Assembly: GCA_002633005.1 (NCBI GenBank)
Contig: NMRA01000286.1
Span: 360,503 to 424,502, forward strand
Reading direction: 5' to 3'
DNA from: Phoronis australis
Lineage: Eukaryota > Animalia > Phoronida
DNA: 64,000 bases
Both the position numbers and the translations under genes were made by a program. Below, in pieces: positions 26,501 to 51,600 of the stretch. Numbering within the stretch: the stretch's first letter is position 1; every line of letters begins with the position of its first letter. Under the pieces are notes generated by a model that searched no databases, was not told the origin of the DNA, and saw only the letters and a list, made by a program, of their open reading frames with translations.

Positions 26501-29500
26501 CTGTCACCACCAGTTTTCCCCTTTTAAAATGTAATACACTTATGTTTATATCTTAAACACAGAACCACCCCTAAACAAATTATATCCCAGGGGAATGTTA
26601 GCTAAAGTATTCACTTTGTTTGTATTCTAAACACCATTTGTGTTGACTAACTTCTGAAAGTCTTTTGCTAATTTGTAACCCAAAATCTTTTTTGTCTAGA
26701 TCACCTGGAGGTTTCAGGCATGTGTAGACATCACTGGGGGTACTGTCCTGTCTGTGGTTTTCTGGTTAAGTTTATGTACGTCCTCAAGATGTGTTATTAC
26801 GTGGTGTAGAGAAATGTTGAAATAATGAAAGTAAATTTCCAGGTTCCTGGTGGTACAGCTGGTGTAAAGAAATTGATTTTCAGAGTTGAGCGTGGTTTAT
26901 GAAGTGCATATTGTCTTCTACCAACACTAAAGAATGTTTCCAAATTTCCAGAATGATTGTTATTACCAAGCGCATGCATTGGCTTGCCACTAACACAGTG
27001 AAGGATACAAGTCTCCCACGATTACTAAACCACACCTTCGTCTTTTACAGGCCCACATGCCAAACAAATCAATGGACACTCGATAAGACACGAGCGGCCA
27101 ACACGTGACCGCGGACATGGCTATGAGACGGCATCGTCGTTCATGTCGAGTGACATCGACTCCACGAGCTACTTCGACTCGGAGGACGATAATGCCAGCA
27201 GGTAGATAGCTTGCATTTGTTTCTACAGCCTGTGCTTTTGTGTTCTAGCGCCCCCTCACAGAGTGAACGGACACTCGTCCGGCCGTAGCGGCTTCACTAA
27301 CTCATCATCCGTGTACAGTAGTGACATCTGCTCAACAACGAGCTACTCAGATTCGGAGAATGATGCCGCGTCGAGGTTTGTTCGTTAGCAACTTATAATC
27401 GACTTATGCACTGTGAATACATTTTCACAATTTGCATCATTAATTTCCTTAATCACTTCATTTAGGATTTTTGCTTTTGTTATGTTGGAAATTTTTGTCA
27501 ACTTGGTCACACAAAATGTTCCAAAATGTTTATAATTTTGTGAGGGTTATCAAGTGTTTGAGAACGACCAGGCCTGCCCATTCAGTTGACGAGTTGTGAT
27601 GGGGGGATGCACTAAACACTGGCTACAAGTTCAACCAAGTACTCTGTGTATAACCTATGCTGACCTCAGTATGTGCAACTGCCACTCTGCACTGGGACAA
27701 GTGTTATTTTGCTACTCATGTGTAGTAAAGTGCTATTTTTTTGAAGAAGGGATACAATGTTTGCCTGAGGCCCAAATTATATGTCATTTGACACAACTGA
27801 GCTAAAGAAGAGGCGTGTTGTTCATAAGTTTGTTTCCGTGGATACAATTTTGATGAACTGCAAGAAATAAAACTAAAGGAATAAAAAACAATAAGCTCAT
27901 TTCGTGCTTGTTTTCCTGTATTTTCTGAAAGTACCGCCAGATTCGTCTCAGTTTTTCACGTGTGTCATTCTGTGCTAGTGCAATGATTTTTGGCCTGTTT
28001 TCACTGCCCTAAAGAAATTGAAACCCAAAAATTTTGTAAGGTGTGTCCAATGGAACGGAGTGATTGGAAATATAGGGCAAACACTGTAGGATGCACGTTT
28101 TTACTGTTTTGAACAAGGAACTTTGAACTCACACAAGCCTAAGTCAAGTGCAAATGGAGAACTCCAAATTAAATAAATCAATTTAGCTGTAGTGAATGTT
28201 CCCATCGAGTGAATTAACTCTATTCCATCTATGGTACTGTCATGTATAATTAGAACTGTTAACTGGCTGTCAAAAACAACAAAGACGATGGATCGCCACC
28301 CCAAAACATGAAGCTGAGTAATGGTTTTCAAAGGTGGCGCTGCGTGTTGCTGTTGTCCGTATAACGTGTGAATTGTCGTCGTACATGAGGTTTGCTAGCA
28401 CGGCTGTAAAGTTATTTTGAATAGAAATGTTTCTGTATCAAGCTGCAAGTATTCATGGAACTGTCTACTTAGGATCCCTAATTATCACAACTAATTAATA
28501 ATGACCTCATTTGTCGATGACTGAAATTTGTTCTGGTGGAAGGACTACAGTTCTACACATTTTGTGTCGTTCTTTGACTAAAAGGATTACAACTTGCATT
28601 TTCGTTTAATGGTGCTCTGCATTTGTGTTGATTCAATTATCTTGCAGTAACCACCGTAATTCAATTATTGGCCATCTTTGGAGTAGTTTTGCAAAAATCC
28701 CCTCCGGCTAGATTTCGCTAATGAATTTTTATGGTAAAACGTCTCACTGAGGCTTCCTGCAATGTCATTGACCCATCTGCACTTTGTCGTGCTTCTGTTT
28801 TGGTAGTCAGACCCAAGTTGTACAAGAAGCATGCTAGAAGCTGCTTTAATGATATTCTGGCCAATACTGAGATTGGGTCATTTACTGACTAGTTGAGATG
28901 CATTCTAAGCTTAATGCATGGGTTTATAGCTTTAATCATCCTTTAATGTCTTCATTATGATCAGTATGGCTATAATTCCTGTGTTTATGAGCCACTGGTT
29001 TACTCACACTGTGATGTTAAAAGACTTGCCCAATGTTTTATGCTAAATTTTGAAGCATTTTATCCTGTAGAACCAGGTGACATGTACCTGCCAACAGCCA
29101 ATACGTTGTATTTTAACCAACAAAGTCACCTCTTTTTCTGAGCTCTTGCGTTGGTTTTGTGGAAACGATTAACGGAATTAACATGAACAAATGGCGCGTC
29201 TGAATCCTTCCAGAGAAATGTTTGCCGTGGAGTATCTGGAAGAACTGGCCTGGTGTAAGATATTAATGGTTCTTGTTAACTTTCCAGTGGTTATGTTTTG
29301 TTATGTTACCACTAACTTTTTTATGAAAAGTGGACTGGCATACGTAGAGTGAGTGATAGGAGAAACCAGGCAGAAATAGTATCCATGGAGATTGTAATTT
29401 ATCCTGTGGTCAATTATATTATGTGACCATTAAGTGTTTACTAGTTTTAGTTGAGAAATAATTGATAGGTACTTTTTGTTGACCACTGCCTTCTTTTTCA

Positions 29501-38500: not shown

Positions 38501-41500
38501 GCTTGCAGGGTTCGATGAGCTGAATCTCAGTATAGAGACTGACATGCTGAGTGTGGTGCGGGCCATGGCCCAGCCAGACTCAGGACTGGAGATACGAGAT
38601 AGGATGTGGTTAAAAATACGCATACCAAATGCATTTATAGGTAATGTTACAACGTGACCGGTTAATCTCCGTAGTTCTGTCTTGTATTTAAAAACCATGC
38701 GTTACTGCTTATTGTATGTATGACGCCACTGCACAAATGCATTTTTTATAACCCAGAAGTTGCAAAATATCCATTGTTATGTTTCAATTTGAACAAAAAT
38801 GTCTAATTTTTAGTATCGTGTTTTTGTTATGAAGGTGTCCTCAGCATGAGTTGGCAAACCACTTAAATATGTTCTTGATATTTGCCTATATTTTGGAGTT
38901 GTCTCCCTCGATAGTACGTCCCATAATTCATGCATAATGGTTTTCGAATTTTAAGAGTTGTATTGATGTTGATTACTTTTGTTGCCCGTTTTATTTGCAG
39001 TAACTGTACGCTGGAGTGTGGATTTTCATAACAAATGTTTTAAATTTTATTGACCGATTAATGCGTGTATGCATGCAAGCGCAAACGCTTGAAATTCCTG
39101 GGGCGGAAGTCTGATCTCAGTACCGGAAACTCGACTCAAAAAGTTACTTACAAATTTGTACTTGAATCATGGAGCATTATTTTAAGTTTAGTTGAGTGTG
39201 CATTCTGAAGTTAGACCCCAGTTCCTGCACCAGCTATCACTTGTACTGACCTTGACCCCACATGTTGTCTTTGTTGTTCTGCAGGTTCAGACTTAGTAGA
39301 CTGGTTACACACACACGTGGAGGGCTTCCTAGACAGGCGTGATGCCAGGAAGTATGCTTGTAATTTATTGAAGGCAGGATATATCAGACACACGGTCAAC
39401 AAAATAACATTCTCCGAGCAGTGCTACTACATCTTCGGAGACCTCTATGGAGGTAAGTTAGAGCTAAACCCTCATTCCTAGGAGTATGCCTAAGGCACCT
39501 GCAAACACGCAGGGTGGAAATGCGCAATTATGAGATAACTTTTAGAACTCGGCAAACAAACTTGAGGACGGGTAGGGATTGCTATTGCACATGTTGAATG
39601 TCATAATGGCCGACCTGTCAAAGTTTTATAAATATATGTTATACAACGTATGAGGGCGAAGCCCGAGTTCAAATACTTTTGCATATCACAAATCTCGATA
39701 TAATTACTGGTACAAACACATACGTTGTATAACATATCTATCCTATGCGCTCCACTGAGGATTCTTTGAAGAAGCGGGTTTTCAATGATTGCTCCTCTTC
39801 TTTTTTTGCCGTTTGTCATCTTTTATCAATGATGATCGCAAATCGCGTGACACGTATACGTGCATGCAATATTTTTATCAATGAATTTTTGCAGCCTGCA
39901 TGACAGGGCAGTTCAAGTTGTATTTTATAGCAGCTACAGGCTTTGGGCACATATTTGTTATTTTCAGTATTTTTGTCAGTGCTTGAGGTGAAATCTATTT
40001 CTAAGTTAAAGTTTGTATACATTTCTGGCGTTTTTCTCGACTTCGTTGAGCAATATCTGTGCAGGACACCCAGACGTTGTGGCTGATGCACATTCAGACG
40101 CTTTTTAAAAATGCTCCTTGCACACGGTTATCATTTTTAGGTACAGAAATTTATCATAAAATTGACAAAAACACAGTGTTTATAGTAGTTGCAGTTTTGC
40201 TTTTGGGCTCGACGTATTTTGATTGTTTTGAGAACGAATTTAAAAATTGACTCATATTTGACCATAGAGAACCTAATCTGGTTAGTACAATAGGTGACCA
40301 AAAGGAGGCATGCATTGGTAATGTTTATTGCTTTCCTAAACCCAAATATATTGTGGCAATTTTGAGGCTTTTTATAATTTGTGTTCTGTTCAGGTGCAAA
40401 ATTTCAGGGTATATTAAGAAAAATTGTCAACAATATTTTTATTTCTTTTTTTTGTTCAGTTTTGAAAATGCATATCATAGTATTGGCATGTGAAAATATT
40501 GTGCACGGAGCTGAACCCAAAGTGAGTCTATATAATAACAATCAGGTTTCTTCGGATTGTAGTGTATTGTGTGCACAGGAGGGAATTTTGGCGAGAAAGA
40601 AGGCATCCGTATTCAAGGCGCGTTGAATACGGAAAAGTAGTTCTTCCATATCAAACATCACAATACGACCCGTATTTCATGGCCTTATTATCATGCATAT
40701 TACATAGTCAGTAATATCTTCTTTAACGTACTCTGTGAACATGTATTTGAAGTGCCATTGCACATATTTCTTTTATGTGTATCTTATGCATAAATAAGAT
40801 AAATACCAAGTTGGCTACAACAGGTAGCAGTCTACAGCGGCTGCAATTTCACATGACTTCGTCAGCTTCTTTGATTTGTTTTTAACCTTGGGAAGAGTCA
40901 TGGACAATCTTTATCCTTTTCTGAGTCCTCACAAACACTTGATTTTTGATGACAGTTCACATCAATCCTGAAATAGGATATAATTTTATTCAAATGCATT
41001 AGATTTGTCATTTCTGATGAGAGAATTTGTACCGTGAAATAAAGCAGAATTTTTTAATTGGCTTTTTCTATTCATTCTGTCTCCTAGCTGGCGAGAATGC
41101 CAAGTTCGGCATCTACGGCCTACCTGACATGGGCGGGCTTAGCCTCAACGACATCGACAGTGTTTCAGAGGCGGATCAGGACACCCTGGCACCTCTTCCC
41201 CCACCCGCCTGGAACAACTACTACCAGTACCCACCGCAGTATGTGCCCCCACCCTTCAGCTACTCACAAGATGGTGGCAGCTGTCATAGTTATCCTCTTC
41301 CAGGAGGGAATGGCAGTGCAGGAAGTCAACACAGCGGATCAGGTAGGTGTTGGCTTGGAGACACTGTGGAGGTGGTGGGCAGTTGGTATATGACTGTGTG
41401 TTGATTGATGGGCTGTTTGTCACTGGTTGCCTAAGAACTAGGAAATGGTTTTTTTTTGCAAAAGTTTTGTCTTGCTTCAGTGAAGTTATTGGGGAAAACA

Positions 41501-42491
41501 AGAAAGATAGTTGGCAAAAAGCAGGGCTAAATATCCTTTGAATATCATGATAAAAAAATTGTCCAATTTTGGGGCAGTCTCTAAAATTTGGGAAACCAAA
41601 TTTCAAGGAGAAATTGAATTTCCTTGATTGTGAAGATTGGGACATGGGTGATTTTGGTATTTGTCATATTTCTGAAATATCGAACTCTGCGTTTTGTACA
41701 GAGTCTGAGAATAGACTTGGCAATTGATTAAATAGCCACCGATGCAACATAGTGTGTAGCATTGGCTGCAGTTGATAGACTTTGTCGATTCCATAGGTTC
41801 AAGTGGCTAAGGCATCTGATTAGTCTGTAAGCCTAAACTATCGTTAGACCAGAAGTCTGAGAACTAATCTTTATGATTCCTGGGTTGTTTTATACTTTCC
41901 TGCAAGTTGACTGTGACTGCTGACGGTGTCGAGGTTCTGATGATTCAGCCGGTTGTGGTTTGTAGGTGGCGGTAAGCTGTAGTGCTCCTCTGCCGGCAAT
42001 GCTGCTGATTGAGAAGCATCTTGGTGTGGCTGAGATTGAATGCAAACTCTGTGCCAGGCTCAAAATGTATATCACTAAGATGAGCTTCCTTCCTGCAAAC
42101 CATAGTTTCCCATTCTGGTTACTTCGAATTTTAAATGGAGACTGAAGGCTTGATTTTCTAGTCCTGAATGTATTTTTCATTTGTAGGGGATATTTGTGTT
42201 ATTATTCAATTCGCTTTTAACAAAACATCTTTTTCCCTGGCCTATGGAAAAACTTATGGTGTGATTGTCTTGGGTGTTGGAGATTGACAGTTCTCTTTAT
42301 TTGAATGCGGTTCGTGTAACATCCTCTGTTAAGCAAGGTAGCGAGGGTGTTGGTATACGAATTTTTCTCTCAAGTGTGACTTTTCTCCCAACTCTATGGT
42401 GAATGTCCGACTTCTTTTGGATCCTACCATCTTATTAAATATGACTGAACGACTGAACTGTAAGTTCACCTGTTCTTGTGTCAGGGTGTTA

Positions 42492-42534
<43 letters not shown>

Positions 42535-44070
42535 CTTGTTCTAATAACGGCGGACATATGTCACTGTTACTGCAGTCCCTCGGAAACTAATTTTTTCACC
42601 TCGGCATGATTTTTAGTGTTTGGAATTGTAGCATATCTTTCAGTGTTATTCAGTTGTCTTGGTTCACAGCATCCCACCCTAGTTAGCTGTGGTTACCCAT
42701 TGATTTAGTTATCCCATTTGCATGTTGGCACAAATCCCTCGTACCCTGAACACTCGAGCGCGTGCACTCAACTTCCTTTCTATTTCACGCCGTCGTCCCG
42801 TGCAGCCGCGAGCACATTCCCTGTGAACACATGTGTATGCCTAATGCGACATGTTCGCAACTTGCGCAAGTTGTGGGAGCAGAAGGAGAAAAAAGCAGCA
42901 ACGTCGTCGTCCCACTGCAAGACGGCCAATTCCAAAATGGCCGACGGTTTCTGCACCCCACCTCCCGCATGTCCTGACAAGCCTCTTGACCAACTGCACC
43001 CATCGTGTTCTTACCGCAGCTACCAGGAACAGTTGGAAGAGCTGGATGATGATGTCAAGGGTTGGTCCGACGTATTGTCACAATTCTGTTGTTTGCTGAG
43101 CTCCTTATGATTTGCCCACATTGCAAAAAGTCCTCACTTATGCGACTAACATTTTCCCTAGGTTTCATTTCTTTTGCTTCTTGTTGTTGGTTTCGCTAAT
43201 GTCCTTAGTTGATTCTGATATACTGTTTGTTGCTTTGGTATTTTTGTTTGAACTGTGGTTGTTTCTTAGTGCGTATGTTATAATTTTCAAGTGTTTTTGT
43301 GACATGACACATTTAATTTTGAGTTAAAGTACTGAGTGGAGGGATGGCTGTTATGTTGTTATTGGCTCTATGAGCTGTTGAAAATATGGTTACATCTGGA
43401 TGTCTAGTGAAATTAGTCATTACAATCAGAAAATTTCATACAGCTGTTTTGGTAATTCACTTAAAGGAGTGCGGAGTCTTCGTTTACAGGTTTTCATACA
43501 AAACGACAAAATCTCATTCATTTTGCTCATTTCTGTAGCATTATGGTAAAAATACTGACACAAGTTAATGGGGGGTTGTCCCAATGTCAGGCTTGATGAA
43601 AAACAGCAAAAATTCTGTGGAACATTTCTGAGTCAAGAGTGAATGCCAACTGAACAGTAATTGGCAGAAAATCTTATGACAATGACAAAAATGGTTTACT
43701 CAAACACTTAATGGGGTTTTGTCATTTTTTTTTAACTGCTGCAATGCATTTCCATTGATACTAGTGAAAGGGGTTGACCATTTTGTGTCTCTCCTTTACA
43801 GGCAGCAGTCACTCAGGCAGTGGAAAGATGAAGAAAGAGAAAAATAAGGAGAAATCGGGTGGAAGTAGTTCCGGCAGCGAGACAGATGCGCACAGTGTGG
43901 CCAGTGTACGCCGTGGTGCCGCCTCGGAGCGCAGCTTTGCGCCAAGTGAGCGAAGTCTACCCCCACCACCTGTAGAACTGCTCAACGTCAACCCAGAGCT
44001 CAGTGGCAGTCGGCAGTCCTTCCGTATGGCCATGGGAAATCCTTGTGAGTTTTTTGTCGACGTCATGTGA
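8436..44070 (+). CDS. dvl: Dishevelled (Dvl/dsh), 5'-partial multi-exon gene; DIX exons lie upstream of the window
   Basis: Hand-spliced exons 8436-8563, 10780-10877, 19283-19360, 27051-27201, 30786-30879, 36134-36203, 36591-36678, 37014-37142, 37509-37717, 38509-38640, 39285-39452, 41088-41342, 43802-44070. All are GT-AG, phases match, and the total is 1869 nt with no internal stop. Hallmark motifs: [45 protein letters not shown] (PDZ), [16 protein letters not shown] (DEP), [20 protein letters not shown]. Confidence 0.98.
10780..10877 (+). CDS. dvl: Dvl linker exon ([32 protein letters not shown])
   Basis: ttttag acceptor; CAG|gtatgt donor; phase 2/1 fits neighbours; TES-hydrophobic-S-x-RR pattern as in other Dvl proteins. 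Confidence 0.88.
14987..15083 (+). CDS. Candidate alternative first coding exon of Dvl ([32 protein letters not shown])
   Basis: caccATGG start context; 32 open codons + 1 nt; CAG|gtaaaa donor in phase 1, matching the downstream exons. No homology support. Confidence 0.35.
18336..18564 (-). repeat. Dispersed repeat family A, copy 3 (inverted)
   Basis: Reverse complement reads aaaatctcatc...ggctatggtccagaagttgaacat...gccatattgtctcctaa. Confidence 0.65.
19283..19360 (+). CDS. dvl: Dvl symmetric 78-nt His/Arg/Tyr-rich exon ([26 protein letters not shown])
   Basis: ctttcttttcatttccgctcag acceptor; ACG|gtaagg donor; phase 1/1; GC-rich island in an AT-rich intron; open in the Dvl frame. Confidence 0.8.
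19915..20146 (+). repeat. Dispersed repeat family A, copy 4
   Basis: gtgaaatctcacca...caaggtcttctaac...tggtagctatggtacac...cagccatattgtgtcctaa. Confidence 0.7.
20628..20656. repeat. Interrupted (GT)n microsatellite
   Basis: Read directly from the sequence. Confidence 0.9.
27051..27201 (+). CDS. dvl: Dvl Ser/acidic exon, variant A ([11 protein letters not shown]...[27 protein letters not shown])
   Basis: cttttacag acceptor; CAG|gtagat donor; phase 1/2; matches the conserved Dvl MSS(D/E)xxSTSxxDS(D/E) segment. Confidence 0.93.
27249..27375 (+). CDS. dvl: Dvl Ser/acidic exon, variant B; duplicated paralogue of variant A ([10 protein letters not shown]...[24 protein letters not shown])
   Basis: cttttgtgttctag acceptor; GAG|gtttgt donor; same 1/2 phases as variant A; open frame; clear peptide similarity to variant A. 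Confidence 0.8.
29782..29974. repeat. Imperfect foldback (MITE-like), about 190 nt
   Basis: Nested inverted arms: accacttac/gtaagtggt, actccaactt/aagttggggt, gcttgcgaaaaattgac/gtcaatttttcccaagc, agttctt/aagaact. Confidence 0.7.
30655..30738. repeat. Perfect 42-nt tandem duplication
   Basis: taagaaacgttttcaataagaataaaatcctttttagtgaaa x2. Confidence 0.95.
30786..30879 (+). CDS. dvl: Dvl basic-region exon ([31 protein letters not shown])
   Basis: cttacag acceptor; AGA|gtgagt donor; phase 2/0; poly-Arg basic region typical of Dvl. Confidence 0.95.
31025..31135 (-). repeat. Dispersed repeat family A, copy 5 (fragment, inverted)
   Basis: gagaaaaattgtgggcattca...ggcaattttggcaattatttggtgagatttt is the reverse complement of the family's 5' half. 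Confidence 0.55.
33719..33802 (+). CDS. Candidate alternative first coding exon of Dvl ([28 protein letters not shown])
   Basis: ATG preceded by an in-frame stop; 28 codons; TTA|gtaagt donor in phase 0, matching exon 36134; ends in LTDSTISL, which resembles ITDSTMSL of the next exon. Confidence 0.3.
36134..36203 (+). CDS. dvl: Dvl exon, start of PDZ ([23 protein letters not shown])
   Basis: Near-invariant Dvl peptide; tttacag acceptor; gtaggt donor; phase 0/1. Confidence 0.98.
36591..36678 (+). CDS. dvl: Dvl PDZ exon ([30 protein letters not shown])
   Basis: Conserved carboxylate-binding loop FLGISI; ttccag acceptor; gtaagt donor; phase 1/2. Confidence 0.98.
37014..37142 (+). CDS. dvl: Dvl PDZ exon ([43 protein letters not shown])
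   Basis: Conserved PDZ sequence; tttcag acceptor; gtagga donor; phase 2/2. Confidence 0.98.
37456..37483. repeat. (ttgaccta)x3.5 mini tandem repeat just upstream of the acceptor at 37508
   Basis: Read directly from the sequence. Confidence 0.85.
37509..37717 (+). CDS. dvl: Dvl PDZ end and proline-rich exon ([12 protein letters not shown]...[14 protein letters not shown]...)
   Basis: Conserved VAKCWDP and EPVRPIDP motifs; ttccag acceptor; gtaagt donor; phase 2/1. Confidence 0.97.
38040..38214 (+). repeat. Dispersed repeat family B, copy 1
   Basis: gagctccatt...ttttgtgaccat...aattaaatgaaaa...gtaaca.ctgtat...taccttta shared with 47309-47493. Confidence 0.55.
38509..38640 (+). CDS. dvl: Dvl DEP exon 1 (...[27 protein letters not shown])
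   Basis: Conserved DEP N-terminal part; ttgcag acceptor; gtaatg donor; phase 1/1. Confidence 0.98.
39285..39452 (+). CDS. dvl: Dvl DEP exon 2 (SDLVDWL...[19 protein letters not shown])
   Basis: Conserved DEP C-terminal part; ctgcag acceptor; gtaagt donor; phase 1/1. Confidence 0.98.
39634..39737. repeat. Perfect 19-bp inverted repeat enclosing a GGGC-GAA-GCCC mini-hairpin
   Basis: atatgttatacaacgtatg (39634-39652) / catacgttgtataacatat (39719-39737); 66-nt spacer. Confidence 0.85.
41088..41342 (+). CDS. dvl: Dvl post-DEP exon (LSLND...DQDTLAPLP...PPQY...GSAGSQHS)
   Basis: Conserved DQDTLAPLP and GSAGSQHS motifs; cctag acceptor; gtaggt donor; phase 1/1. Confidence 0.95.
42494..42533. repeat. 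(TG)20 microsatellite
   Basis: Read directly from the sequence. Confidence 0.97.
42806..43110 (+). CDS. Candidate alternative terminal exon of Dvl, 101 aa ending [10 protein letters not shown]
   Basis: Pyrimidine-rich tract + tgcag; phase-1 entry puts it in a 100-codon open frame; GC/CpG-rich like the true exons. Confidence 0.55.
43802..44070 (+). CDS. dvl: Dvl canonical terminal exon (...[22 protein letters not shown])
   Basis: tttacag acceptor in phase 1; canonical Dvl C-terminal PDZ-binding tail; TGA at 44068-44070. Confidence 0.98.
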
Positions 44071-44616
44071 TTGGCATGGTGTGATGCAGAGATTGTCATG
44101 AGGACATTGTCATGTGACCACGTCTGATTGGCTGTTGCATGATCAACTTCATGAGATCACATTGTTTGATCATTGGCTTGTTGGTTGTCGCATAATTATG
44201 GCTTAGCTGGTGTTCTAATGTCGACTTGAATTTGTTACTGTGTCTGTATGCTGCCACTATTATGTAATAACTTTATGGTGCTTTTATCACGTTGGATAAA
44301 TAACAATAATAACTGTGATCAAAAAAGTTAGAGCGAGCTTCTCTTTTCATGTTTGTAACATCTAATTACAGTGTCCACTTTGTGTGATTATACTTTCATT
44401 GTTAATCTTTTTCTTATTTAGATTGCACCGAAATCTTCTAAATTGTTAATTTGTTTCACATTTGAGTTTCCTTAACTGCCAAACAAAATTAAATTTACAT
44501 GAACATGTTCCAGCATCTTTGTAAACACGGCTATTGTTTCTCTCCACTCCATCTTCAGTTGACCTATCTTGCCTTTCGTATGGCAGTCTCTAATATGTCT
44601 CTCTTCTCGTTTTTAG

Positions 44617-44648
44617 CTGAGCAACTAAACCAGCTCGACCAGCTATAA
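44617..44648 (+). CDS. Candidate alternative Dvl C-terminal mini-exon ((S)EQLNQLDQL*)
   Basis: Branch-like ctctaat at 44588, pyrimidine tract and tttttag acceptor at 44616; matching phase-1 donor T|gtgagt at 44044/44045 inside the canonical last exon. Confidence 0.5.
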
Positions 44649-45799
44649 CCCTGGTGACGGGACTCTAGTCTTGCTTCTCGCCACTTCCTAAAGCCGACTC
44701 TCACTGCACTCCTAGCTGTAGCTCGGCACCAGATGCTGCCACGCAGTTTCTAGCTACTGGCTAATTAACTTCTATGCGACTTTTCATCTACACAAATTTG
44801 GGGGAAAGCTGGATTTGGTCGGTGGTGGAAGTGCTTGGTTTGAATATCTCTGCCGTCAGATTACGCAGATCACGGCAGTTAAGATTTGCCTGGTGTGTGT
44901 ACCGTTTTGTTCGAAACGGGTTTGTGGGTTGCAAGATGCTTAGGTGCTTCTAACAAGCGTCGTATGTCTTAACGGGGTAAACTTTTGTGTAAGTAACACA
45001 TTTATGTCTGGTGCTCAGCTTTAGTCCTCCCATGATGGGTGACATATTGTAACTTGTTATGATATGAACAGAAGGGTGCATACCACGTGCCCCTTAACCA
45101 CCAAGAAACTCGCAGAAGTGATGAAATTTAAGATCATTTTATTGACTGTATGTTTGATATTATCTTTGACTGCATTTTTGTTATTGATGTATGCCACGTT
45201 TTCGTAACCTGTCTACCGAGTCTGAATCTATGAATGAGAATGGAGCAAAGTGCGGGCATCTGGCCCAACTATTGTGTAATATTATGTAATATTGCTGTTG
45301 GTGTTAATTGTGGATAATTGGTGTATTGTAATTAAAATTGAGTAGCCTTTAGCTTTTGTGTGGTTCGTTTAAATGTCCCATGTTGACTCGATTTCCGACA
45401 CGCTGGGAACATTTCCTTCATCGTTAATAGTACGAGTACAACTGACTGAATGTGACCTAACTGCTTGGACATGTTAGAGCCCTGCTGTTGTCGACTTGAT
45501 TAAATTGTCATAACTACTGTACGCTATGTGAATGTAATATTCCATGTCATGGTAGCATTTAGGGACAGTGTTAGGTTTGTACAGTATTCAAAATGTACTA
45601 CTATCATCTCTGCCAAGTGATGTTCTATGATCTGTCTGCTACAGGTCATGTTGTTAGCACTCAACCAGTGATATGGAGATACTGAGGTGTAAGCGCGTTC
45701 ATAGTCCATAGTGTTAAGTATTCTTATATACTCCTGCATGCGATGTTTGTTAATTTATACTTTTTATCTACTTACACCAGTCAAGTTTTTAGATAAATA

Positions 45800-45910
45800 T
45801 GTCTGTCAATTTTAACTGTAAGAACATGTTTTATAGTTTTCTTGTACAGTACTTCATTCTGTCTGTAAGTCATTTAACTGTAAGAACATGTTTTATAGTT
45901 TTAGTGTACA
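45800..45910. repeat. Imperfect duplication with 62-nt period in the Dvl 3' UTR, with a 30-nt identical core
   Basis: tttaactgtaagaacatgttttatagtttt at 45811-45840 and 45873-45902. Confidence 0.9.
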
Positions 45911-46691
45911 CTATCTATGATGTTCTACAAGGCATACTTGGACATCAGTGCATTTAGTTGGTCTTGTTTTAATGAATGGTTTTATGTGCAAAATGAAGTT
46001 CTTAGTTGCTTGCACAATACTTGACATAAAGCTTAAAGGTAACATTCAATCTCCAGTTTACTTCCCATAGTTTTAATTTCCTAGGTAATATTTTAAAGGA
46101 ATTCTTAAATTAGCGATTTCCTTAACCAGTTGATATTTTTCAAAATAGAAGAGCTCGTGAACAAACATAAAATCACTTATCAAAATTATGTGGAATAATG
46201 TCAGTAAAGAACACATATTGATGAAGAGCTATGTTTGAATTGACCATCTTGGTTTCTGTGTTTGCACCTATATACATGTCATACAGTTTTAATAGCTCCA
46301 CAACTGTAGTGCAGTAAAACTTGGATAAGGCAGATCAGGCTGAGAGGTTTGTTTGAGTAAGGCAAAATCTGGTTTATCTGAATTACTGAGTGTACAAACT
46401 CCAATCACACAGCAGAACATCGTCAGAGTTAAATCTAGATTTGACTTGTGCGAATTTTTCTAGTTTTATTTCTCTGCCCCTTTTGTGAACTTGTATGAAG
46501 ATGCTGAAACTAGTCTGTGTATTCTCAGTACGAACTTGAATTGTCAAGCTTGTACAAAGTAATGCTTCTATAAATGTGCAATTCCTGCTCCTTATACCAT
46601 CATATGTAAAAACCCACTCTGCATTTTATTCAGTTGACTTATTGTATGTGCAGTTGCAAGTTGTATAAACTAGCATCCAATTACTGTCAGT

Positions 46692-46697
46692 AATAAA
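46692..46697 (+). terminator. Likely Dvl polyadenylation signal (AATAAA); 3' UTR about 2.6 kb
   Basis: First canonical AATAAA I found downstream of the stop; T-rich UTR-like composition ends near here. Confidence 0.5.
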
Positions 46698-47308
46698 CAG
46701 TTGAATATTGACAACATAGTCTGTCGATTGCTGTCGGGAATAAGAAAAACACTCTAAGGATATTACATTGTTGAAAAAAGGTTCACATTAAGCCATAGCC
46801 AAGTTAGTGTGACTCTGACTGGCTTGGCTGCACCTGAGGCATAAAATGTCAGGATGTTCCCTAATTTTTTTCATTGGACTCTTTAACATAAACCTATTGT
46901 CGATTTCTACTTGTATTGTGTAGTATCACACCTTTTCCAATACAGAGTGTGCAAAGTAAGCCATTTTGTTCCAAGACTTGCATAGCGGAATTTATTTAAT
47001 GTTTCTAGACTCGCAACCCCAACACTTCACTTCAGACTTGTCTGGAAAATTTACGTGCTCGTCAGTTTTTCAGTCGAATGTCAAAGTTAGTGGTTGATCC
47101 AGAAAAAGCAAGTACAATGGGCATTATTCTCTGTAGCCACTCTATGCACTGTTCAAAAGTTGTACTCAGCGTTACGTCCCCGGATCACAAATTATTTATT
47201 AAAGCAGCAATAAATGTGCATCCCGTCCACTTACTACTAAAATAATTTCGACTCACTACAGTGGTATGAATCGAATGTTGGCCACTTTAAGCCAAGCATA
47301 ACATCTAT

Positions 47309-47493: not shown

Positions 47494-47522
47494 AGAAAGA
47501 AACTTTGCAATCCAATGCACTC

Positions 47523-47528
47523 TTTATT
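47523..47528 (-). terminator. Likely rootletin polyadenylation signal (AATAAA on the - strand)
   Basis: tttatt on + strand, about 760 nt past the rootletin stop; alternatives at 47804-47809 and 47195-47200. Confidence 0.4.
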
Positions 47529-48287
47529 CAATACTGTGTCCACTTACAAACAAGTTCATCATAGCACATCTAAAGATAAGTAAAACATTCTGTAAAGCAC
47601 TCTACTTCTTCACAGAACACTACGCAAAGTTGAGCTAAGACGCATAGATTAACTCGGCACTAATCAATTGCTAAAAACACTTGTGTTCTCATCTCAATTA
47701 TGGAATGTAATCATCCATTAAGTTATCAGTCAAAAATCTTCGTGTGTCGCATCATAAGACCTGTTCTAATCATTCAGCTTATCACAGCAAAACCTCCCAT
47801 AAATTTATTATAATATAAAATATATTCAAGCAACAAAAATAATACAATACCATTCATCATTTTCTATTTACTCTACAAAAATAAAAACTCAAAATATACA
47901 CAGTGCAAAAAGATTTGTCTTTGGTAAAGATAAAGGTAAAGATTAGGCCACACAGAAATATTAAAATTATATTCAATCTTCATTTGGAAACCAAACACAA
48001 ACATTGTTTTCAGCTTACAAGTGTGGTAAAGATTTTAGGAGCACAACAAACAAAATCCTTGCACACAACATGAATCATGATTGCTGTGGATTGGGCTGCT
48101 GACCAACAGAGCTCAGTCAGTGCAAACAAAAAGGAAGTCTTTACAAGCACCTCCACTACGTCAAGATAGAATCGTGCGCTAATTTGTCAAAAATAGTAGC
48201 AACTCCATGAGCAATCTCTTCAAGCAATACTTAAATAAATTCAATAGTCACAAACATGTAAAAGCTGAGGGTGGCAGTGTATCGCTT

Positions 48288-48668
48288 CTACTTCCTTCTG
48301 GATACAGGGGTTCTGGCAGATGGACTGGGACCTGTGGAGGTACGTCCTCTGCTGAGCACGCTCCGCGCGGCTGGTGTCGATGTAACGCGACCAAGTCTGA
48401 TGGGTGAAGTGCTGCGTGTGGGTGACCGTCTGTGTGGTGAGATGCGAGACATGCCTGGCCCGGAATGGAAGTCAACAGTGTCATCCAGCTTCCTGGTCTC
48501 CGCCTCCAACAGGATGGGGTCAAGTGTGGGGTCACGGGCAATGTTGGACAGAGAGTTGTCCAGCACGCTACGGATGTCTTTGATCTCGTCGCCAGCACGT
48601 GCACTACGCGAGATGTACTGCTGGCGCTTGCGGATCTCCTGGTTCAATTGGTCCTTCAATGTGGAGTT
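48288..48668 (-). CDS. CROCC: Rootletin terminal exon (NSTLKDQLNQEI...PVSRRK*)
   Basis: gttctag acceptor; phase 0; 127 codons to TAG. Confidence 0.92.
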   Translation of the reverse strand, partial: NSTLKDQLNQEIRKRQQYISRSARAGDEIKDIRSVLDNSLSNIARDPTLDPILLEAETRKLDDTVDFHSGPGMSRISPHRRSPTRSTSPIRLGRVTSTPAARSVLSRGRTSTGPSPSARTPVSRRK

Positions 48669-51600
48669 CTAGAACAGGAAATAACAATGTTCAAATATTG
48701 GAGAACATTACAGGACCTGATCTGATTTAAACACAGAGTCTACTCCCTTTACTCTAAGCTCGACTAAAAATTGACCAATTACACACCACGCTTTGAGTAA
48801 ACTAACAAATTCACACTCAAATCTTGCAGTGTTAATTGTTTAAGTGCTGGGTCTAAGTGCAACCTTAGACTGGAGATTAGACCCTGGCTCCATGTATCAC
48901 ATACATGTGCTTTCACACAAGTCTGCTCTGATGTTTGAAATGATACATAAAGAGCGCGTTCATTAATGCCCATTACTTGTGAGTGAAAGTTTAATTACTT
49001 TATACATGCTTCACTAGAACAGCATTGTAATATTTCATGAAGACTTGCTTGATTTTGCTTAGAGCCTCAAATACTAGACTCACTGAGGGCAGTCCAGGAC
49101 CAACAGTAGTAGTACATATTGCACGCCAAATAATGCAAATCTAGTCTCATACAGTTGAAAAGATCTTTTAACATGGCATTCAGCAAAGTGACACCGACAG
49201 TCTGGACAACACATGACTACAAAGTCCAGACAGTTGTACTCACCTGTTCCTCAAGTCCCTTGACGCGCTGGCGATGAGCACGCTCACGAGCTTCCAGTGT
49301 TCTCTCTGCCTGCACTTGAGCTGTACGCAGGCGGTTGGTTTCCATCTCTGTCTCCTGGCGATGGCGCGTGGTTAGGTCAATCAATCTGTCAAGAGAAAGA
49401 GGCAGAGTAATGCAGACAAAAAGTAAATTGTTTAGAGCACAACAATGTACAATACACTGTATACAAAGGTATATCCATTTACATACAATTTTATTCTCCA
49501 TTAATGCATCTGAAAAAAAAGTTAAGCCTTTTTCCTAAACATTTTCATTTGTGAGAAAGGGAACAAAGAAAACCTTGTTAGCGAACATACAGAATAAAAT
49601 ACCAAAGAAAGTCAACAGAAACTCAGATTCCTGTATTTTTAAAATTTGCATTCGATTTAGGTGGTAGTTACAATAATTTTAACGAAGACAGCTTTTTGGT
49701 AGAAGAGTGAAACACTACCTTGCAAGATGTTCATCAGCCATTTTGGTCAAGCTTGCATTGAAAAGATAGAGCAAAAAACATGTAAATTTTCTGTTTTTGA
49801 GTGAAAGGCAAGACTTGTCCATGCAATGAACAGAACAAACTACTACAATACAGACGAGGTGCAAAAACCATGCATTTTAGTGCGGGTTTGTGAGAAAGTT
49901 ATTTTTTAACTTATTGGGATGTCAACAGATACTGTTGTGTCGACTATTTCAGACAAAAACAAGAGGAACTTATTTTTCAGTTGGACAGCTTTCTACAAGA
50001 CAACGTAACAGAAAGCAGCAGCAATGAACTTTAGTGATGCAGCATGAGTACCTGTATAAGCTAGCTGTTTCATGCAAGTAAACAAGAATAGTAATAAGTA
50101 CCAAGTAGAATGGCAACAGCCAACATGCAAATGCAAAACCTCAGTGGGAAGACTAATACAAGTGACGCATGAATGAGGCAAACGTTTGTATATGCAAAAG
50201 TGAAGAGAACTGGAGGAAAAAACAAGGGACAATCATGTTTCATGCAATGACTGTGTGACTAAAGGAAAATTTCAAGAAGTCCATCTGTAAAAACTTTAAA
50301 GATAGCAAATATTCTCCCACGTCATGCAATCACAAAGAATATGAAAATGCCTTGAGCCTGCAAAATCAACAGCCTTTGAAAATTGAGAGAACGTATTGAT
50401 TTTGTGGGCAGTCATTGAAGTTGATACAGCAACTCGCAAAAACAGTATTTGTGCACCAAGTAGTGCAGTTACTAGACACAATAACAATAGCTAAATCTTA
50501 TGAATTAAAAATATCATAACAGGCCACTGTTATAAAATTCTAACACTTCCACTGAAAGTTTTATGCGACAACACACTGCAGTAAAGAGAACACCACAAAT
50601 ACCAAAACGAGACCAGACATTGTCCAAAATGAGCCACTACGTAGACGTGTCACAAGCTTAATCAGCCCTACCTCTGAGCATGCTGCTGTTCAGTCTCAGC
50701 AACCTGAGCCTCCAGCTGTTGAATCCTGCGCTGCTGCTCAACGTTCTCCTCCTCTAACTTGACCACTGACCGGTCCAGTGTGCCACGCTCGGCCAGGGAC
50801 TTGCTTGCCACTTCTTCTGTACGCAACTTCTCTCGTTCAACCTGCAACCATTAATGTGAATTAGTCCTCGCATCTGAAATATCATGCACAACCAACAACA
50901 ACCTGTGTGTTAAGAAGATTGTATTTTACTGTGTTTCAAACGAAGAATATGACCTTGATCTTTTTTAATGAACCACTTACTTTTCTACTTGCACATTTAA
51001 GACACAGTGAAGTATCCCTAACACTCACCTTATCCAGGGTCTTCTTCAGTGCTGTCTTGTCCTTCTCCAGACGCACCTGTGAGCGCTCTATCTCTCGTCT
51101 CTCTGTCTCCATGTTGGCCAGCTGCCTCTGCAGCGAGGCCACACGCTCGGCCAGGCTTTGCTTCTCTGTGGTCAGCTTCTGCACCTTCTGGTTCAACTCC
51201 TGCTCCTGCTCCTGGCGCTGGATCAGCATCTACAGGAACAAACAGCATTACCTCATAACACCACAGTTTTACATCTAATCATTATACAAGTCCAATACAA
51301 CTTCCAAAGTTGGATCAGTAGGTAGACAATCAAATGAGCATCATCATACAATGTAATACCTTCATGCAGACAATACATTAATCTTACCAGATTTGCACAT
51401 TTTGTATACATGTCAGTGTTGCATAACATTCTGATTCAGACGTGAAATAATGGTCAAACAAAACATTTGTCGAAAATAAATAAGGAAGACATTTTGGACA
51501 TTTTCATAATGTAAATAAGATCTATTCACCATTTTCACTAAAACAAGAAGTGTAACCTAACATAACTTGTCCCTTGGGAAACAACTAAAGAATCATTACC

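Follow-up and report, generated by a model that had tools for sequence, protein, structure and literature searches.

The C-terminus of Dishevelled (Dvl) is usually viewed as a fixed, conserved autoinhibitory latch, the loss of which leads to a planar cell polarity bias and to Robinow syndrome. Does a wild-type Dvl gene always end in this latch? We addressed the question in a 64,000-nucleotide stretch of the Phoronis australis genome (assembly GCA_002633005.1, contig NMRA01000286.1; hereafter the window, whose numbering is used throughout), which carries a Dvl gene on its forward strand. An original prediction, drawn from the letters alone, had proposed that an alternative acceptor gives this Dvl a new 101-residue end. 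We find that the gene has three possible C-termini, here called tails A, B, and C, of which tail A is the predicted replacement and tail B the conserved end.

An alternative acceptor is used in RNA

The donor after 41342 (GT) can be joined in phase 1 to an acceptor AG at 42804–42805, opening a frame of 101 residues with its stop at 43108–43110, and the sequence thereby agrees with the acceptor, donor, and frame of the original prediction. RNA came from two studies: contigs of study P1 (X1, RNA by guess) and three raw stranded RNA runs of study P2 (X2, X3, and X4), of each of which 18–19% was read. The relevant features are as follows.

41088..41342, forward strand: shared Dvl exon, start of Dsh_C (Pfam Dsh_C, E 8e-9); its donor serves both acceptors (42806 and 43802)
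42759..42805, forward strand: alternative acceptor A, with an AG-free zone of ~47 nucleotides (nt), a branch-like pentamer near −22, and CAG; used in reads
42806..43110, forward strand: coding part of the alternative exon (101 residues of tail A plus stop); 5 junction reads, X2 and X3
43111..43801, forward strand: presumed 3′ untranslated region (UTR) of the RNA carrying tail A (form A), or else intronic; lacks a poly(A) hexamer and is covered by reads from X2, X3, and X4

The joint 41342>42806 (GT..AG) occurs in two reads of X2 (two starts), three reads of X3 (two starts), and none of X4, with 40–41 bases on the short side; the predicted junction is thus present in two of the three raw runs. 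The canonical joint 41342>43802 is found in 5, 2, and 14 reads of X2, X3, and X4, respectively (21 in total). These reads lie on the strand of the Dvl gene, and a convergent neighbor, serving as a control, gives the opposite orientation. The tail A share of junction reads, 5 of 12 in X2 and X3 together versus 0 of 14 in X4, gives a Fisher p of 0.012, which is overstated because mates were counted as reads and are hence not independent molecules. Reads do cover 42806–43801, but depth over the alternative exon (0.8–7 in X2–X4) is not clearly above that of the upstream intron (0–6), and therefore the case rests on the junction reads. From these we conclude that the splice 41342>42806 is very probably a real cellular event.

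The acceptor at 42806 opens the longest phase-1 frame among all 115 AG sites of the intron (the runner-up reaches 81 residues), and base shuffles kept a frame of this length open in 242 of 20,000 cases. The segment is single-copy within the window and holds no tandem repeat, and none of 12 poly(A) hexamers occurs between 43100 and 43801, in line with the earlier remark that no AATAAA precedes 43802. Together with the junction reads, this bears out an alternative 3′ splice site by which the C-terminus of Dvl is exchanged. The segment had been described as a GC/CpG-rich island. With a GC content of 52% and an observed/expected CpG ratio of 0.77, compared with 55% and 0.80 in the canonical exon and GC of 41% and 35% in the flanks, it is exon-like and not a CpG island. 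Under a coding model for which 10 Dvl exons served as the training set, the segment scored above all 354 non-exon windows used for comparison. No variants are listed within 42806–43110, at a depth too low for inference; neighboring constitutive exons carry four, all synonymous.

Other interpretations of the segment were rejected. A recursive splice site would need a GT after the AG, which is missing, and a cassette exon is at odds with the lack of any listed joint leaving 42806–43801. A structured RNA was likewise discarded, as 42740–42920 folds no better than its shuffles (z +1.2) and has no Rfam match.

The intron itself (41343–43801) is covered over most of its length in all three raw runs, at a depth of 0–6 upstream of the 42806 acceptor, which suggests slow splicing or retention. 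Its retention would end the protein at 41404 after a short read-through. Numerous partial reads that belong to other parts of the transcriptome accumulate at 41570–41660, a sign that the intron contains a short dispersed repeat.

The canonical exon leads to two further tails

The original prediction had placed the alternative exon in the last intron of the gene. This is not the case, since a further intron is spliced downstream.

43802..44044, forward strand: canonical exon, common to tails B and C and UTR in form A; 21 junction reads from 41342; Dsh_C E 3e-7
44045..44070, forward strand: tail B, the conserved PDZ-binding end (ends D-V-M), coded only if the RNA keeps the intron that begins at 44045; matches human DVL2 701–736, PDB 8wm9
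44045..44616, forward strand: GT..AG intron beginning inside the canonical tail; joint 44044>44617 in 7 reads of X3 and 20 of X4, with 4 loose ends in X2
44617..46650, forward strand: true last exon, with tail C coded by 44617–44648; RNA end near 46600–46700

The donor of this intron lies inside the conserved Dvl end, directly after the MGNP codons. Depth within the intron (at 44145–44342) was 0, 0, and 2.9 in the three raw runs, compared with last-exon values of 15, 23, and 40 (44739–44936). Filtering can produce such dips, a caveat that does not touch the joints 44044>44617. In X3 and X4 the prevailing form has the intron spliced out and ends in tail C, and tail B is an intron-retention product that is the minor form in the three raw RNA samples. 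The X1 contigs run unspliced across both ends of the intron (e.g. 43956–44140 through the donor) with no joint listed, and tail B is therefore present in that other study, insofar as X1 is RNA.

Beyond the shared exon, tail C runs for 91 residues, and its end, D-Q-L, is still class III-like (D/E-x-hydrophobic). Relative to tail B, only the last eight residues are lost in tail C, and the last 89 in tail A. The related protein P0002, from another animal, leaves the conserved end at the same codon with a Ser and an unrelated tail, which suggests from sequence that the same donor inside the conserved tail is used in its gene.

Tail A carries a heptad helix and an actin motif-like segment

We modeled tail A with AlphaFold2 (AF2) in single-sequence mode, which gave a helix at residues 7–33, a linker at 34–68, and a second helix at 70–100. 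The pLDDT score (predicted local distance difference test) is about 70 in the first helix and under 50 in residues 34–68, and this linker is probably disordered. Two segments stand out.

43021..43107, forward strand: terminal amphipathic helix, residues 73–101, with Cys95-Cys96 and the ending S-S-L; hydrophobic at 9/9 heptad a/d positions
42853..42879, forward strand: segment VRNLRKLWE, residues 17–25, inside predicted helix 7–33, resembling the short linear F-actin motif (SFM); consensus from the part of PMC13364712 considered here

In the terminal helix, residues 73, 77, 80, 84, 87, 91, 94, 98, and 101 are hydrophobic and form a 4-3 pattern over four heptads. Among 27,400 stop-free 29-mers of the window this is the sole case, and it arose in 1 of 20,000 shuffles; the helical moment was reached by 19 of 10,000. 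The heptad helix is the best sign of selection on the tail A frame, and the peptide looks to be under selection.

The S-S-L end does fit the class I PDZ ligand pattern (S/T-x-hydrophobic), as proposed originally. This reading is weakened because 137 of 3,868 random stops (3.5%, counted as S/T-x-V/I/L) share such an ending and because Leu101 falls on the helix face, in heptad register with a predicted helix that reaches residue 100. The two cysteines are likewise present, and CC occurs in the last ten residues at 67 of 3,868 random stops (1.7%); S-palmitoylation of Cys95-Cys96 is possible but unsupported. Prenylation of the CAAX or Rab type takes a Cys within the last five residues; Cys95-Cys96 of 101 are too far from the end, and this modification was rejected.

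The published SFM consensus is VxxLxxxFE (PMC13364712). Residues 17–25 of tail A agree with it at all four key positions: Val at P1, Leu at P4, an aromatic residue (Trp) at P8, and Glu at P9. Trp occupies P8 in 7 of the 124 published SFM sequences, as counted by eye, including that of caldesmon, which its authors consider validated by truncation (PMC13364712). Identity is 5/9 to the caldesmon sequence VRNIKSMWE and 6/9 to VEQLRKQWE of DENND1A. The pattern V..L...[FW]E arose in 0.13% of 20,000 peptide shuffles and in 2 of 77,812 six-frame 9-mers of the window; a looser SFM pattern arose in 0.56% of shuffles and ~1.7% of window frames of this length. If the protein is made, its SFM-type helix would probably bind F-actin. 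The likeness to an F-actin-binding segment that had been noted before is borne out as a pattern only. A perfect 16-base palindrome (42858–42873) lies inside the codons of this segment.

Fate of the RNA and function of the tail

Our preferred reading is a regulated isoform, an open Dvl that is tethered to F-actin through the SFM and oligomerized or partnered through the heptad helix. We put it forward tentatively, as possible and not yet as probable. Splicing from donor 41342 to acceptor 42806 would swap the last 89 Dvl residues, including the self-inhibiting PDZ-binding end, for the 101-residue tail, the short SFM-type helix of which is predicted to bind actin filaments. The product would be an “open” Dvl on cortical actin, biased to planar cell polarity output, with the terminal heptad helix as a putative dimerization or partner-binding surface whose cysteines might be lipidated. 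The three tails could then serve as a splice-level dial on Dvl autoinhibition that varies by sample. As to one part of this scheme, we consider it likely that form A RNA escapes decay and that a selected protein is made.

Several observations weigh against this reading. Support for tail A amounts to 5 reads with 4 start sites from a single study, and the joint is absent from X4 (0 versus 14 canonical) and from the X1 contigs. Intronic signal is strong in the libraries, and molecules spliced to 42806 may be immature. The coding score of tail A (−0.002 bits/nt) is lower than that of each of the 10 known exons read in frame (0.04–0.27), and no significant preference for its frame emerged (211 of 2,000 shuffles). 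The AF2 model is of low confidence overall (pLDDT 54); the helical moment of the SFM segment is unremarkable, with 710 of 10,000 shuffles as high; and the actin-motif and heptad tests were both devised after the patterns had been noticed. To these we add the lack of a poly(A) hexamer upstream of 43801 and the position of the stop. Nonsense-mediated decay (NMD) acts when a stop lies >50 nt upstream of an exon junction; if the RNA continues to 44044, the tail A stop is 934 nt upstream of the junction 44044/44617 and the 3′ UTR is ~3 kb long, which brings form A under the rule.

Searches for relatives of the 101-residue peptide, which count on the same side, found no candidate among proteins of 55–177 amino acids (aa), 0 of 99 candidates among longer proteins, no match among 1.84 billion representative proteins, and nothing usable in the ESM Atlas. 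There were also no matches in the PDB, in phages, or in 6 viral contigs. A neighboring true Dvl exon used as query retrieved only 2 proteins from 89 candidates, at 40–49% identity, indicating few close kin in the databases; the blank searches are therefore uninformative. A Pfam PAS_4 match of tail A (E 0.26) was rejected, as were short prokaryotic matches (3 of 102 in metagenomes, 3 of 55 in genomes), which are pattern-seeded chance. One of them, L001, is a 227-aa archaeal-type open reading frame (ORF), presumably PhoU, with a single 10-residue run in common. Prokaryote genomes yielded no animal Dvl contig (0 of 599).

The strongest alternative is that acceptor 42806 is a regulated unproductive (poison) splice, with NMD lowering the Dvl dose and the peptide being incidental. 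The 934-nt distance and the missing poly(A) hexamer fit this account, reads run on through 43111–43801 in all three raw runs, and a precedent exists in exon 14b of mouse Dvl1, where a premature stop is presumed by the authors to cause decay (in the part of PMC11967847 considered). However, the share of tail A among junction reads is high for a decay target (2/7 in X2 and 3/5 in X3), and a poison exon needs neither 101 open codons nor an SFM match nor a 9/9 heptad. The depth in X2 also drops from ~10 to 1–2 near 43520, which could mark an RNA end, though this is seen in one of three raw runs and the 5–6 molecules that share both ends may be copies. We consider this alternative rather unlikely.

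Somewhat less credible still is that tail A is real and selected but acts through lost autoinhibition and the heptad helix (by dimerization, membrane association, or a PDZ partner), with the actin match due to chance. The heptad helix is indeed the stronger statistical signal, and chance should yield the looser SFM pattern in ~1.7% of frames of such length. Moreover, pattern hits do not equal binders, because the published pipeline kept 59 of its 539 first-round hits (PMC13364712). Against this explanation, the match extends to all four key positions, published SFMs include sequences that closely resemble it, and the motif sits in a predicted helix, after which comes a linker of low confidence that is probably disordered.

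Finally, noisy splicing into a functionless GC-rich relic in the intron (a fragment of an old exon or of a mobile element) would account for the few reads from one study, the high intron background, the absence of a homologue in the searches, and the weak frame periodicity, but it appears very unlikely, as other AG sites in the intron have no listed reads, the segment is single-copy in the window without tandem repeat, and the frame spliced to is the open and patterned one.

We retain the regulated, actin-tethered isoform as our working reading. With regard to the original prediction, its observation is confirmed and its interpretation partly supported; a third tail, the heptad helix, and the liability of form A to NMD had escaped it.

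The Dvl gene and its surroundings

In this animal Dvl gene, Pfam and tblastn of P0002 locate exons in the order Dishevelled-specific region, PDZ, DEP, and Dsh_C. In the PDZ region, identity to P0002 is 97–98% over two exons. Four DIX motifs found no match on the forward strand of the window; the DIX exons possibly lie outside it or were missed.

Two tandem paralogous Dvl exons of 151 and 127 nt (27051–27201 and 27249–27375) have the same phases and are separated by 47 nt, and each matches residues 1–21 of P0002 and Pfam Dishevelled. They are probably mutually exclusive, because joint inclusion would break the frame. On the reverse strand, 47500–48670 holds the 3′ end of an expressed convergent gene for an apparent coiled-coil protein (judged by eye), whose RNA end lies ~900 bases from the Dvl 3′ end.

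As a separate observation, nine IMG/VR contigs (L004–L012), seven of them labeled giant-virus metagenome-assembled genomes, carry intronless actin-like ORFs of 359–381 residues; that of L008 scores ~650 bits against eukaryotic actins.

Comparison with known systems

In the locus described here, splicing lets a wild-type gene drop or swap the latch, and the textbook end is minor in three RNA samples. The tails offer natural isoforms on which the latch model can be tested. Should tail A bind F-actin, Dvl and actin would be linked directly, and the tail would exemplify, in an invertebrate, the gain of an actin motif by way of a new exon. In more general terms, splicing of an invertebrate Dvl could be a three-position switch on the autoinhibitory tail, one position being a newly evolved module that ties Dvl to actin and dimerizes it. 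We regard this wider claim as doubtful; if true, it would link Wnt/planar cell polarity signaling directly to the cytoskeleton with no need of formins. Since P0002 diverges at the same codon, splicing within the conserved tail may be a widespread switch.

The frameshifted tails of DVL1 and DVL3 in Robinow syndrome are dominant disease alleles that translate another frame of the same exons into basic tails. They likewise put unrelated sequence in place of the conserved C-terminus, whereas tail A is encoded by a separate exon of a wild-type gene and carries an acidic heptad helix.

In the parts of the published accounts considered (PMC13142005; bioRxiv 2025.10.09.681388), the conserved Dvl end binds the protein's own PDZ domain and keeps Dvl closed, its loss opens Dvl and favors recruitment to the membrane as well as non-canonical signaling, and a stretch situated ~43 residues upstream of that end makes contact with Ror2. 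Tail B, with its match to human DVL2 701–736, corresponds to this autoinhibitory class III motif. As in the Dvl deletion constructs of those accounts, the conserved end is lost, wholly in tail A and in its last part in tail C. The difference is that here natural splicing removes it, in two ways, and that the D-Q-L of tail C is still class III-like; in tail A the loss extends to the conserved stretch upstream, with the Ror2-contact region.

A literature search, with most subscription journals and automatic gene models outside its scope, returned no description of splicing that replaces the Dvl tail beyond mouse Dvl1 exon 14b. This 39-bp cassette lies between exons 13/14 and 15 and is seen on loss of MBNL (PMC11967847, in the part considered). 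In both cases an early stop results from alternative splicing directly ahead of the last coding exon, but in Phoronis an alternative acceptor adds 305 nt of coding sequence.

With published SFMs, tail A would share V-x-x-L-x-x-x-W-E within a predicted helix, and also its character as a putative isoform-restricted actin motif on a Wnt pathway scaffold. The word DVL is absent from the main text of PMC13364712, and there is no DVL row in the portion of its Supplementary Table 3 that was covered. SFMs are reported there to arise de novo, and the DIX domain protein DIXDC1, isoforms of which lack N-terminal parts, has one. DIXDC1 thus offers a precedent for the mode of action proposed for tail A, though not for membership.

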